DNA of 64,000 nucleotides from a virus (IMGVR_UViG_3300028591_000070:160001-224000), one strand, 5' to 3'; shown: positions 2,596 through 23,789, numbered from the stretch's first letter. Notes: a model not told the origin generated them from the letters alone. Numbers and translations are program-made.

Positions 2596-2684
2596 TTCTG
2601 AGGGCGGGATTCGAACCTGCACGACTCGGGTATGAGTCACCAGAATCAAAATCTGGGGAGATACCAATTACTCTTTACCTCAGA
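2596..2684 (-). tRNA. tRNA-Gln(TTG) with atypical long variable arm
   Basis: TCTGAGG/CCTCAGA acceptor, CCAGA-TTTTGAT-TCTGG anticodon arm, GACTC/GAGTC variable hairpin, TTCGAAT T loop. Confidence 0.8.
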
Positions 2685-2691
2685 GTGAAGA

Positions 2692-2776
2692 CGGATAAGG
2701 TGAGATTCGAACTCACGGAAAGTTTCCAATCACTTCCTTAGCAGGGAAGCCACATAAACCACTCGTGCACTTATCC
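2692..2776 (-). tRNA. tRNA-Ser(GCT)
   Basis: CTTCC-CTGCTAA-GGAAG, long variable arm, G73. Confidence 0.9.
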
Positions 2777-2786
2777 ATAATAAAAT

Positions 2787-2869
2787 TAGGAGCGGTTGGA
2801 TTTGAACCAACATCCACCAGTTAGACGCATTATACTGGACGGTTTATAAGACCGCGCTCATACGCTCCT
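2787..2869 (-). tRNA. tRNA-Ile(TAT), no D arm, long variable region
   Basis: AGGAGCG/CGCTCCT acceptor; only TATGAGC before GCGGT-CTTATAA-ACCGT; T arm GTTGG-TTCAAAT-CCAAC. Confidence 0.7.
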
Positions 2870-2876
2870 ATGGTAG

Positions 2877-2944
2877 TTGGCTACAAGCGAGTCGGACGCT
2901 TCGAACTAGCCTTATGAGAGCCAGTTGGCAAACCTGCGTAACCA
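2877..2944 (-). tRNA. tRNA-Met/Ile2(CAT) with reduced D arm
   Basis: TGGTTAC/GTAGCCA acceptor, CTGGCT-CTCATAA-GGCTAG, T loop TCCGACT. Confidence 0.65.
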
Positions 2945-2951
2945 AAGAAAA

Positions 2952-3110
2952 ATAGCTAGTTCAACATCATTCTGCAGGGTCACTAGCCTTGTTGTCACGT
3001 GGTTTTTTCCTTTATTGGAATGTGATACTTGCTTTCATATCATCTTTTCAGGTCGCAAACCTTCCATAAAGTAAGACAACGTTCTGCACTCCGGAACTTC
3101 CCCAGAATTT
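2952..3110 (-). ncRNA. unknown structured ncRNA inside tRNA operon 1
   Basis: Nested inverted repeats (AGTTC/GAACT, TGCAG/CTGCA, GTTGTC/GACAAC), no ORF. Confidence 0.5.
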
Positions 3111-3183
3111 TTCTAGCGGTAGGAGTCGGACCCACACAAGCTTGATCCAGAGTCAAGAGCACTACCTATTATGCTACGCTAGA
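3111..3183 (-). tRNA. tRNA-Gln(CTG)
   Basis: CTTGA-CTCTGGA-TCAAG; T loop variant TCCGACT. Confidence 0.85.
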
Positions 3184-3184
3184 G

Positions 3185-3258
3185 TCGGCAAGATGGGACT
3201 CGAACCCATAAAATTCACATTTTGAGTGTGACACGTATTCCAATTCCGTCACTCACCG
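3185..3258 (-). tRNA. tRNA-Leu(CAA), short variable loop
   Basis: TCACA-CTCAAAA-TGTGA; Leu-type D loop; no long variable arm. Confidence 0.85.
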
Positions 3259-3264
3259 AAAACA

Positions 3265-3393
3265 AAAAGAAATAAGAATAAGCAAAAGAGTTCTGTGGGA
3301 CTTGAACCCACAAGCCATAAGGCGTTTGATTTGCGATCAAAATGAGTATACCAATTTCTCGAAGTAACTCTTTCAAACTGCATTATTTCTTTT
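3265..3393 (-). ncRNA. YrlA-like Y RNA 1 (non-permuted tRNA-like D/anticodon/variable/T insert)
   Basis: Outer stem AAGAAATAA/TTATTTCTT, TGCAG, AAAGAGT-TACTTCG...ACTCTTT; insert with TTTGA-TCGCAAA-TCAAA and GTTCAAGTCC. Confidence 0.75.
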
Positions 3394-3397
3394 ATAA

Positions 3398-3479
3398 TGG
3401 GCCTGGAGAGATTCGAACTCTCAATCCTTTCGGCGCCTGCCCCTTAAACAGGTGTGCATACCAATTCCACCACAGACCC
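3398..3479 (-). tRNA. tRNA-Leu(AAG)
   Basis: CCTGT-TTAAGGG-GCAGG, long variable arm. Confidence 0.85.
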
Positions 3480-3487
3480 AAATAAAG

Positions 3488-3569
3488 TCGACCAGGAGGG
3501 ATTTGAACCCTCAATCCTTACGGCGTCCGATCTTAAGTCGGATGTGCATTCCAGTTCCACCACTGGTCG
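3488..3569 (-). tRNA. tRNA-Leu(TAA)
   Basis: TCCGA-CTTAAGA-TCGGA, long variable arm. Confidence 0.9.
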
Positions 3570-3576
3570 ATAAATA

Positions 3577-3647
3577 TGTGCTGGAGGGGAGTTGAACCCC
3601 CATGTGAAGAACCACAATCTTCCGTCCTACCGTTGAACGACCAGTAC
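3577..3647 (-). tRNA. tRNA-His(GTG)
   Basis: GAAGA-TTGTGGT-TCTTC. Confidence 0.85.
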
Positions 3648-3649
3648 AG

Positions 3650-3722
3650 TCCCGCTGAGAAGATTTGAACTTCCACTTTATAGATTCTAAGTCTACTGCC
3701 TCTGCCGTTGGGCTACAGCGGG
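3650..3722 (-). tRNA. tRNA-Leu(TAG), short variable loop
   Basis: GTAGA-CTTAGAA-TCTAT; CCCGCTG/CAGCGGG acceptor. Confidence 0.85.
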
Positions 3723-3731
3723 AAAATAAAG

Positions 3732-3804
3732 TGTGAATGGTTGGAATCGAACCAACGACACGAAAATTTTCGGTCTTCTGCTCCACCTACTGAGCCACAT
3801 CCAC
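3732..3804 (-). tRNA. tRNA-Phe(GAA)
   Basis: GAAGA-CCGAAAA-TTTTC (C33). Confidence 0.85.
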
Positions 3805-3811
3805 ATAAGAG

Positions 3812-21873: not shown

Positions 21874-22011
21874 ACATTTTAAGTAAAACGAAAAGAGTGT
21901 TGAATCAGCTTTCAGTGGGGATCGAACCCACAAATATTCATTAACAGTGAATTGTTTAACCATTAAACTACAAAAGTATTGAAGTAACTCTTTTCAACTG
22001 CATTAAAATGT
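21874..22011 (-). ncRNA. YrlA-like Y RNA 11 carrying a complete non-permuted tRNA-Asn(GTT)-like cloverleaf
   Basis: TGCAG, GAAAAGAGTTACTTC...ACTCTTTTC enclosing D arm, ATTCA-CTGTTAA-TGAAT, T arm. Confidence 0.78.
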
Positions 22012-22014
22012 CTC

Positions 22015-22087
22015 TAGTCCATGAGGGAGTCGAACCCACGTCTTTTGGATGAAAACCAAATGGCGACTGCCGTTAGCCGAATGGACC
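22015..22087 (-). tRNA. tRNA-Glu(TTC)
   Basis: TTTGG-TTTTCAT-CCAAA. Confidence 0.85.
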
Positions 22088-22094
22088 ATAAAAA

Positions 22095-22235
22095 ACAACT
22101 AAGAAAAAATTGAACAGTACGTTTTTACCTGCTCTACCAACTGAGCTACATCTCCACGAATTGGAGACGACTGGATTCGAACCAATGACACGGGGTTTTC
22201 AAGACCGAAGTAACTGTTACGTCTGCATTAGTTGT
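22095..22235 (-). ncRNA. YrlA-like Y RNA 12 (permuted tRNA module)
   Basis: TGCAG, AACAGTTACTTCG, GGT-CTTGAAA-ACC, T arm, closed acceptor, TAGCTCAGTTGGTAGAGC. Confidence 0.82.
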
Positions 22236-22244
22236 ATTATTATG

Positions 22245-22313
22245 TGGGGCATTACTTTTTAAGAACACCGTCGCATTCTTAATTGTCACCGTCGCAACAT
22301 AAAGTTTTGCCTC
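22245..22313 (-). ncRNA. small RNA with two identical hairpin loops (TGCGACGGTG)
   Basis: 10-nt direct repeat, each closed by a stem, inside GAGGCA/TGCCCC outer stem. Confidence 0.6.
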
Positions 22314-22314
22314 T

Positions 22315-22387
22315 TAGTTCTTGCGAGATTCGAACTCACTCCTCGTCCTTGAAAGGGACGCGACTCAACCAATTTGTCCTAAGAACC
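22315..22387 (-). tRNA. tRNA-Glu(TTC)
   Basis: CGTCC-CTTTCAA-GGACG. Confidence 0.9.
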
Positions 22388-22478
22388 ATGGCGGCCAACG
22401 GTTTAATTTTAGGTGGAACCTCAGGTCTGTAAAAACCACCTTATTTTTAGGATTTAATCTTATAATCCGCAAAGAATA

Positions 22479-22549
22479 AGCTACGTGTAGGAGTCGAACC
22501 CACCTCTCTTGATTACAGGTCAAGACCTCAACCGATAAGACAACGTAGC
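22479..22549 (-). tRNA. tRNA-Thr(TGT)
   Basis: CTTGA-CCTGTAA-TCAAG (C33). Confidence 0.82.
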
Positions 22550-22701
22550 ATATAAAAATTATAAAAGAAACCGCGAAAAACTTTTACTGAATGTTACACT
22601 TTGCCTACTTGCACAAGGCCACTCTCACACTCTTTCAGCTTACTGTCATAGACAGCTTACCTTTCAACCCATTACAAGTTCCTGGGCTCGATTTTTTATA
22701 G

Positions 22702-22776
22702 TTTCGGAAATAGGAGTCGAACCTACTATTTCTAGCTTATGAGGCTAGCGTGATAAATCCGTTTCACTCTTCCGGA
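22702..22776 (-). tRNA. tRNA-Met(CAT)
   Basis: CTAGC-CTCATAA-GCTAG. Confidence 0.82.
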
Positions 22777-22850
22777 CGGGATAGGCGGGACTCGAACCCG
22801 CGACCTTCGCGCTGACAACGCGTCGAGCTAACCAACTGCTCCACAACCCC
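22777..22850 (-). tRNA. tRNA-Asp(GTC)
   Basis: CGCG-TTGTCAG-CGCG, G73. Confidence 0.88.
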
Positions 22851-22991
22851 AAAAAATGTTTGATGTTTTAAGTGTTATCGTCTCACTAGGGATTAATCGT
22901 TTGTCCACTATCGTTATCATAGTGAGCACGAGGAATCCTCCACCATCAGCTCTTTAGAGAAGCTGAAAACTCCTGTTTACTTAAAAACATA

Positions 22992-23064
22992 CGGTTTGTG
23001 CGAGAATCGAACTCGCCATCCCCTGCGTGACAGGCAGGTGTGATAACCGATACACTAACAAACC
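22992..23064 (-). tRNA. tRNA-Asp(GTC)
   Basis: CCTGC-CTGTCAC-GCAGG. Confidence 0.92.
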
Positions 23065-23070
23065 ATAAAG

Positions 23071-23156
23071 TGCTCAGGGGGAGATTCGAACTCCCTGCGT
23101 ATCTTACGTGTCGGTTTTACAGACCGATGCTACTCCACCATCGTAGCCGCCTAAGC
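23071..23156 (-). tRNA. tRNA-Tyr(GTA)
   Basis: TCGGT-CTGTAAA-ACCGA, long variable arm. Confidence 0.9.
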
Positions 23157-23167
23157 ATAATTTTTAG

Positions 23168-23239
23168 CTGGCCGTGCGAGAGTTGAACTCGCCTAGGCGG
23201 ATTAACAGTCCGCTGCCTAAACCGATTGGCTAACGACCA
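23168..23239 (-). tRNA. tRNA-Asn(GTT)
   Basis: GCGGA-CTGTTAA-TCCGC. Confidence 0.92.
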
Positions 23240-23244
23240 ATAAA

Positions 23245-23271
23245 ATAAAAAAGCTCTCCGAAAGGAGAGCT
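23245..23271 (-). terminator. attenuator terminator of tRNA operon 3
   Basis: AGCTCTCC-TTTC-GGAGAGC followed by TTTTTTATTTT just 5' of tRNA-Asn. Confidence 0.9.
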
Positions 23272-23300
23272 CATAAAACTTTTTTAATTATATAGTTTTA

Positions 23301-23402
23301 TTAACTCTCTCTTTTATACAAAGTAGTTTCTTCTGTCCCATAATCATATGTTACATTTTCATAAGAGAAATTATTATTGTAATCATAATTCATAGTAAAC
23401 AT
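23301..23402 (-). CDS. leader peptide 3 MFTMNYDYNNNFSYENVTYDYGTEETTLYKRES (attenuator of tRNA operon 3)
   Basis: GGAGGAG SD; 22 of codons 3-27 are N/Y/D/M/T/E/G, the tRNAs downstream; 3' end complementary to terminator 5' arm. Confidence 0.88.
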   Translation of the reverse strand: MFTMNYDYNNNFSYENVTYDYGTEETTLYKRES

Positions 23403-23789
23403 TGAAAATCTACTCCTCCAAATTAAGTTTTATATTTTAATTAGTACAATCATTAAAAATGATTGATGTATTTATATTAACATACTTTTGAAAAGTATGC
23501 TAAATATTTTCAAAGAAAAGCTCCAAAACTTTCAACTGATTAGAAAGAAAAAAGCTTATGCTAAAGCTCGATCCAACTTGCTACAATAGGGTAAGCTAAG
23601 CTGATTGTCCATACTTTAGTTTCATTAATCGGGGATGCCCGATTAAAGGCAACCTTCCACCACCAAGTTTCATTAATGTTTCTGAGAAGGAAGCTTCAAA
23701 AAACCTGGAAACAAATACCTTATTTAGAATATACTCAAATCTTATAAAAAGTTCAAGTAATTTCTAATGTTTTTCCATTTACAAATAAA

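Follow-up and report, generated by a model that had tools for sequence, protein, structure and literature searches.

The window analysed here is a 64,000-nucleotide stretch that corresponds to positions 160,001-224,000 of a 385,934-base virus record (an uncultured 386-kb jumbo phage; G+C 33%), and it holds 45 transfer RNA (tRNA) calls and a transfer-messenger RNA (tmRNA) between 2.6 and 24.2 kb. Three tRNA operons on its minus strand are each preceded by a short open reading frame (ORF) and an intrinsic terminator, and each such unit is very probably, to judge by its sequence, a ribosome-mediated transcription attenuator of the trp/pheA type that gates the tRNA operon behind it with negative feedback. 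Layout, codon match, competing helices, ribosome geometry and conservation are established from the sequence; the attenuator reading, which an initial annotation of this DNA had proposed, is supported by the codon statistics, the rank of the antiterminators, the position of the modelled switch points, sequence conservation among relatives and an independent case in the unrelated phage phiCbK. All three units were found where that annotation had placed them. Their common layout runs from GTTAATAT through a small hairpin, TGTACTAATTA, a GGAG site and an ORF of 35, 45 or 33 codons to a terminator 29-43 nucleotides (nt) past the leader stop codon, with the first tRNA another 4-7 nt on. The leaders and operons, in window coordinates, are:

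3961..4068 (-), leader ORF 1, 35 codons; sensor core codons 5-28 (3985-4056)
9091..9228 (-), leader ORF 2, 45 codons; sensor core codons 5-40 (9109-9216)
23301..23402 (-), leader ORF 3, 33 codons; sensor core codons 3-27 (23322-23396)
2596..3882 (-), tRNA operon 1, ending at terminator 2553-2576
5967..9024 (-), tRNA operon 2, ending at terminator 5936-5960
21451..23239 (-), tRNA operon 3, ending at terminator 21239-21273

The composition of each core mirrors that of the operon behind it. Operon 1 contains two Phe tRNAs, Leu (TAG, TAA, AAG, CAA), His, Gln (CTG, TTG) and Ser (GCT), together with atypical Met(CAT) and Ile(TAT) genes and a weak Cys(GCA)-like element, and core 1 consists of Phe, Leu, His, Gln, Met, Ile as ATA and Ser as AGY. 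Operon 2, which also harbours a GIY-YIG endonuclease gene, contains two Pro tRNAs (and a weak Pro AGG), Ser (TGA), two Ala, Gly (GCC), Ile (GAT), Val, Cys, three Lys, Trp and Arg (ACG); core 2 holds Pro, Ser as TCN, Ala, Gly as GGY, Ile as ATY, Val, Cys, Lys, Trp and Arg as CGN. For operon 3, the tRNAs are two Asn, Tyr, two Asp, two Met, Thr, two Glu and Gly (TCC), and the core residues are Asn, Tyr, Asp, Met, Thr, Glu and Gly as GGR. The uninterrupted run of 24 cognate codons described for leader 1 and the 22 of 25 described for leader 3 (the exceptions being Phe, Ser and Val codons) were both recovered. The run of 36 claimed for leader 2 stands for amino acids and shortens to 35 for codons, since codon 5 (GGA) is read by operon 3. 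Jointly, the three cores hold all 20 amino acids, as had been proposed. Codons 2-4 of leaders 1 and 2 are non-cognate, and leaders 1 and 3 hold a few codons of other operons.

We defined the codon set of each operon by its anticodons plus standard wobble, counting in the atypical Met(CAT), Ile(TAT) and Pro(AGG). Codons in the own operon's set make up 25/34, 38/44 and 24/32 of leaders 1, 2 and 3, at expected fractions of 0.23, 0.41 and 0.36 (binomial P of 5e-10, 5e-10 and 1e-5), and the leaders match the codon sets of the other operons poorly. These counts were reached by 0/87,314, 0/84,544 and 2/87,868 same-length windows of real phage proteins. When 22 codon blocks were shuffled among the three operons, the observed score of 84 compared with a mean of 36.6 and was equalled in none of 2,000,000 permutations; 21 of the 22 blocks peak in the leader of their own operon. 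Counted from its first or its second ATG, each leader ranks 1 of 2,600 short ATG ORFs for its own set. The match extends to isoacceptors, as the initial annotation had it: in the codon-level cores, each of the 22 codons for the split amino acids Ser, Ile, Gly and Arg agrees with the isoacceptor present (joint P about 2e-6, computed from genome codon usage).

The leaders also bear on tRNA genes that are hard to call. The Met(CAT) and Ile(TAT) genes of operon 1 (about 2878-2943 and 2787-2869, minus strand) seem to have a missing or shrunken D arm; the first is missed by ARAGORN and Rfam, and the second scores 34.8 bits. Leader 1 samples the codons of both, and a relative, L129, carries a canonical Ile(TAT) at the matching place. 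For the weak Cys(GCA) element that ARAGORN reports in operon 1 at 26 bits, below the cut-off, leader 1 has no Cys codon. Several tRNAs, those for Arg AGA/AGG among them, belong to separate units, and no leader-terminator module was seen in the upstream sequence inspected for these units. AGA is absent from all three cores, and the separate unit of its tRNA has a promoter motif directly upstream.

Competing helices and ribosome position

Between each leader and its operon, two predicted structures compete for the same RNA:

3911..3981 (-), antiterminator 1; 5' arm 3956-3981 across the stop codon, 3' arm 3911-3936; -28.6 kcal/mol
3886..3919 (-), intrinsic terminator 1; -19.7 kcal/mol, then a U tract
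9053..9106 (-), antiterminator 2; 5' arm 9083-9106, 3' arm 9053-9076; -23.1 kcal/mol
9031..9062 (-), intrinsic terminator 2; -14.5 kcal/mol, then a U tract
23265..23311 (-), antiterminator 3; 5' arm 23294-23311, 3' arm 23265-23280; -14.3 kcal/mol
23245..23272 (-), intrinsic terminator 3; -14.5 kcal/mol, then a U tract

In the predicted folds, the closing stretch of each leader ORF forms a duplex with the spacer plus the terminator's 5' arm. Ranked by the strength of such a rival duplex upstream, the three leader terminators occupy places 1-3 among 56 predicted terminators of the genome, and the antiterminator folds in every homolog that was folded. The last, non-cognate codons of the leaders are those required for antiterminator pairing.

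We modelled the ribosome codon by codon with three footprint sizes, an exercise that yields a model rather than a measurement. The terminator arm was sequestered in the nascent RNA until the A site reached about codons 24-28, 36-39 and 26-29 of leaders 1, 2 and 3, respectively, and the cognate runs end at codons 28, 40 and 27, near these modelled switch points. A modelled ribosome at the sensed codons leaves the antiterminator free, and one at the end of the ORF blocks it. No dominant 1:2 pause or anti-antiterminator helix was seen in the folds, the only candidate being a 4-base-pair (bp) helix in leader 1; pausing is not reliably predictable. In naked pre-terminator RNA, the modelled terminator arm is sequestered at 0.72, 0.99 and 0.85, and untranslated leader RNA should, on this model, be read through. 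The untranslated trp leader, unlike these, terminates.

Relatives and an unrelated phage

All three units recur in IMG/VR and metagenome contigs, and their leaders have been called as small genes in many assemblies; leader 1 is conserved in L094, L095, L100, L107, L114 and L129. Every ORF indel seen in the relatives keeps the frame, and leader 2 is 39 to 47 codons long. In none of 11 DNA variants of leader 2 does Ser depart from TCN or Ile from ATY, and 6 variants of leader 1 use AGY alone for Ser and ATA alone for Ile. In the most divergent version of leader 2 (P0173, L133), the residues stand in a changed order and 36 consecutive codons are cognate; an antiterminator of its own and the same tRNAs follow. 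Among full-length leader-2 variants, 12 of 14 distinct core substitutions stay within the set, where about half would be expected (P about 0.01). Antiterminator 2 keeps 96% of its pairs across homologs, with 2 double-sided and 8 one-sided changes, which among related kin amounts to modest support. The alignment of unit 3 shows no double-sided change and has two divergent rows shifted; the helix still folds in each sequence alone.

One relative is a deletion derivative (L129:9923-12810) in which operons 2 and 1 have been brought together, at the cost of several tRNAs and of unit 1's first promoter motif. Its leaders are only partly eroded after this tRNA-deleting event. Two distant relatives, G002 and G003, have DNA polymerases that are 47-48% identical. 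G003 keeps the GTTAATAT motif, but its tRNA cluster has no leader-terminator module, and the tRNA cluster of G002 is cut by the contig end; from these sequences the system looks patchy within the phage family.

The best evidence from sequence that leader composition tracks operon content comes from Caulobacter phage phiCbK, which is cultured. Its gp083 is a 45-codon ORF followed by an annotated terminator and then by a block of Pro, Thr, Lys, Leu, His, Ala and Ser tRNAs, and 41 of 44 gp083 codons encode those seven amino acids (P 4e-12). By inspection only, a second short phiCbK ORF, rich in Arg, Gln, Val, Ile, Phe and Gly, lies before the next terminator and block. The amino acids are partitioned differently from those of the present phage, and each leader follows its own block. 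Among close kin, L129 speaks against tight co-variation of leaders with tRNA content. A like design in a cultured phage makes the hypothesis testable with simple reporters.

Promoter motifs, host and neighbouring loci

The upstream part of each unit comprises the following elements:

4139..4146 (-), unit 1 GTTAATAT, promoter-like (-10) motif; a general motif with a leaderless ATG 6-9 nt downstream genome-wide
4102..4112 (-), unit 1 TGTACTAATTA, holding the second promoter-like motif, TACTAA
4069..4082 (-), unit 1 Shine-Dalgarno site and spacer
9296..9303 (-), unit 2 GTTAATAT, promoter-like motif
9262..9272 (-), unit 2 TGTACTAATTA, second promoter-like motif
9229..9244 (-), unit 2 Shine-Dalgarno site and spacer
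23474..23481 (-), unit 3 GTTAATAT, promoter-like motif
23438..23448 (-), unit 3 TGTACTAATTA, second promoter-like motif
23403..23419 (-), unit 3 Shine-Dalgarno site and spacer

The initial annotation was right that these motifs open each unit; they are not specific to attenuators, since GTTAATAT occurs in 88 and TACTAA in 288 copies, with leaderless ATGs peaking 6-9 and 7 nt downstream, respectively. Because they are common and stand at fixed distances before leaderless start codons, we read both as general promoter-like motifs of this phage. TGTACTAATTA itself has 3 copies in the window and 5 in the genome. The promoters of each unit seem to be arranged in tandem. Operons 2 and 3 contain none of the known promoter motifs of this phage, and operon 1 contains one (GTATAAT, within the Ile(TAT) gene). 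In L105, L007, L114 and L133, the first tRNA genes are interrupted or flanked by inserted ORFs, several of them of endonuclease type and some headed by TACTAA; internal promoters of such ORFs could bypass the attenuator in those strains.

The phage genome contains a sigma-70-family gene and no detectable RNA polymerase beta subunit, from which it follows that host polymerase probably transcribes these units, near ribosomes. A spirochete-type flagellin gene (G000:C1, about 330,940-331,790, minus strand; locus L145) is frameshifted after about 50 codons, whether truly or by assembly error. Because its best match among solved structures is a Treponema denticola filament (PDB 9PIL, E 3.6e-88), the host is probably Treponema; a search with the sigma factor pointed to no host. 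The phage collection that we searched held no cultured close relative. Related DNA comes from gut metagenome assemblies, and the runs that hold parts of the stretch are mostly from sheep and cattle gut (small shares). Metatranscriptome contigs provide RNA-library pieces across the region that carry no ends, strand or levels, and we did not use them as evidence; among the pieces listed, none covers a leader of this strain.

Several other elements surround the units. Just upstream of unit 2 lies a GOLLD-like large RNA (9343-10245, minus strand; Rfam RF02032, 96 bits, E 2e-24, short of the gathering score of 150), and contigs over window positions 9551-10162 have by far the greatest depth in three gut RNA libraries. 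Two non-coding stretches, 15666-16600 and 12000-12570 (both minus strand), are covered by RNA-library contigs in several runs and match no Rfam family; they are possibly further structured RNAs. The sequence GTTACTTC occurs in 12 minus-strand copies (3368, 7334, 8492, 10387, 12502, 14674, 14780, 14951, 19040, 21768, 21988 and 22214), most of which have GCAG about 9 bases upstream and which often precede tRNA-like halves. Two copies coincide with weak YrlA (Y RNA-like) matches, there is a TROVE/Ro60 gene at 12814-14499, and the copies are a candidate Y RNA family. Distant TROVE homologs were found in other gene contexts. A relative carries an RtcB gene, which together with the neighbouring TROVE gene would fit an RNA-damage setting without proving it. 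The phage tmRNA (23790-24155, minus strand) has an unusual basic tag peptide that is conserved in relative L134. A cluster of beta-glucosyltransferase-like and thymidylate-synthase-like genes (24976-30097, minus strand) is likely to be a DNA base-modification locus.

Readings of the switch

In the attenuator mechanism that we propose, host RNA polymerase would start at one of the two phage promoter motifs and a ribosome would translate the leader. With the sensed tRNAs charged and intact, the ribosome would enter the last 5-7 codons and cover the 5' arm of the antiterminator, and once that arm is covered the terminator would form ahead of the first tRNA gene. With any sensed tRNA in short supply, the ribosome would lag in the core, the antiterminator would form first and polymerase would read into the tRNA block, whose products would speed the reading of the leader and close a negative feedback loop. 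Translation of the leaders in vivo, the switching, the feedback and what depletes the tRNAs are steps that we infer. Host anticodon nucleases are a plausible trigger (PMC11555353, PMC11464382); amino-acid starvation or simple feedback fit equally well, and the decay of host tRNAs during infection could also serve.

A number of observations weigh against this mechanism. At equilibrium in the finished transcript, the terminator base forms (probability 0.7-0.9) in leaders 1 and 3 at any ribosome position, and in leader 2 for stalls at about codons 10-27; because it still forms, switching must, as modelled, be kinetic and set by folding order. The homologs are close kin, and counts made on them are not independent. 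In L129, no Phe(GAA), Val, Cys, Lys, Gly or Arg tRNA is detectable in these operons, yet codons for Phe, Cys and Lys persist in its leaders, and the Trp codon has gone though a Trp tRNA is kept. Several leader-3 variants carry an out-of-set change of Thr to Ile, and out-of-set changes occur in distant leader-2 variants too. Terminators close to stop codons are a published proxy for transcription that outruns ribosomes, or runaway transcription (PMC7858274). Of the 35 ordinary terminators examined in this phage, 17 are no more than 12 nt away from a stop, so a polymerase pause would be needed for attenuation. Transcription and translation may not be coupled in the host; Treponema primitia offers an example of translation-coupled control (PMC3892789).

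A bolder form of the attenuator reading, on which we are evenly divided, holds that the three leaders act as a codon-resolved monitor of the whole code that audits 20 amino acids by isoacceptor, releases only the matching block, and provides an inducible counter to the host's tRNA-cleaving defences, and that this design arose independently in unrelated phages. The initial annotation went too far in proposing that only the operon supplying the missing decoders is released. The folds revealed no dominant anti-antiterminator, so that on our model a unit should also open when initiation fails or when the ribosome stalls at any point before the antiterminator, and leaders 1 and 3 carry foreign codons. 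The same negative result, the sequestered terminator arm of naked RNA and the foreign codons would also suit a general sensor of translation speed, in which real switches answer slowed translation of any kind as well as initiation failure, with the codon match serving only to tune them and the operons mostly opening together; attenuators based on an upstream ORF (uORF), as Bacillus subtilis vmlR shows, can be induced by general translation defects (PMC9226507). We think this rather unlikely, as neither the sorting of all 22 split codons by isoacceptor nor the composition kept in L133 despite its changed order would be selected for if only speed mattered.

It is improbable that the units merely fix a dosage or a delay, with a constant fraction of readthrough or a late switch as host tRNAs decay and no sensing of demand. 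The near-isoenergetic antiterminator and terminator of unit 3, the terminator that wins at equilibrium in units 1 and 3, and tandem promoters suggestive of two time classes are consistent with such a device; a fixed fraction has no need of a codon match, and timing by tRNA decay is itself a form of the attenuator explanation. Less credible still is that the peptides themselves have a function (that of leader 1, being hydrophobic, might sit in a membrane) and match the tRNAs only incidentally: sequence conservation and the many assemblies in which the leaders are annotated as genes would suit this, but synonymous families are restricted, residues of the set exchange freely, their order changes in P0173, the C-termini are fixed by RNA pairing and homolog searches, for which leader 1 was too short, turned up no longer relatives. 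T-box-like sensing without ribosomes, in which codons would pair directly with anticodons of uncharged tRNAs, would share the codon-anticodon match upstream of a terminator/antiterminator pair and is hardly conceivable here, given no Rfam match to a T-box (stem I, specifier loop, antiterminator bulge) at the gathering score or at E up to 1, Shine-Dalgarno sites, ATGs, stops and frame-keeping indels that point to translation, and 24-36 codons in a row that cannot all be specifier loops.

As far as sequence can tell, the three units have every defining feature of an attenuator except a clear pause hairpin. Like pheL/pheA, trpL, hisL, thrL and ilvL, they have a short, presumably translated ORF rich in the sensed codons. 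ThrL senses 2 amino acids and ilvL 3; each leader here has codons for 7-10, with three leaders covering the code and sorting by isoacceptor. The regulated genes are tRNAs in a phage rather than biosynthetic enzymes, and the antiterminator is 15-25 bp long, spans the stop codon and comes with no clear 1:2 pause hairpin. Rfam searches gave no match to the Phe, Leu, His, Trp or Thr leader families over the three leaders, with weak sub-threshold matches only at the operon-end terminator 2512-2668. In Escherichia coli, pheM-pheST is leader-peptide attenuation of one aminoacyl-tRNA synthetase through Phe codons in a feedback loop; there, as proposed for this phage, charged tRNA controls a part of the translation machinery, and here the products are the tRNAs themselves. 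The opposition of an antiterminator (2:3) to a terminator (3:4), in which a stall would give readthrough, is likewise that of the amino-acid operons (PMC3082878, PMC7858274).

Other systems share parts of this design. In B. subtilis vmlR, ribosome stalling in a uORF controls an antiterminator with the aid of NusG-dependent pausing, and attenuation is thus workable in a bacterium with weak coupling; unlike the present leaders, vmlR senses antibiotics through an anti-antiterminator and not codon supply (PMC9226507). The Anabaena trn operon is also a long tRNA operon that is normally silent and comes on under translational stress (PMC8421152, PMC10272220), but its regulator, TrcR, is a ribbon-helix-helix repressor that acts at initiation; the operon lacks a codon-specific leader and keeps all its tRNAs in a single block (PMC10272220). 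T5-like phages carry tRNAs that replace host tRNAs cut by anticodon nucleases (PMC11555353; PARIS, PMC11464382), by analogy a likely motive for the present blocks; the control described for them is a strong promoter, and attenuation is not mentioned in that work (PMC11555353). The T5 annotation, read alone, has promoters within the tRNA region and no annotated terminator before the tRNA blocks. In line with the initial annotation, targeted full-text literature searches, which covered few subscription papers, found no description of leader-peptide attenuation of tRNA genes. The mechanism proposed is textbook attenuation, applied here to tRNA genes.

These units address the question of why large phages carry near-complete sets of tRNAs and when they express them. 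Codon-matched attenuators imply that the phage makes its tRNAs in response to failing decoding, and so favour replacement, as anti-defence or under starvation, over constant compensation for codon bias. From the leaders one can also tell the codon for which each unusual phage tRNA is intended.

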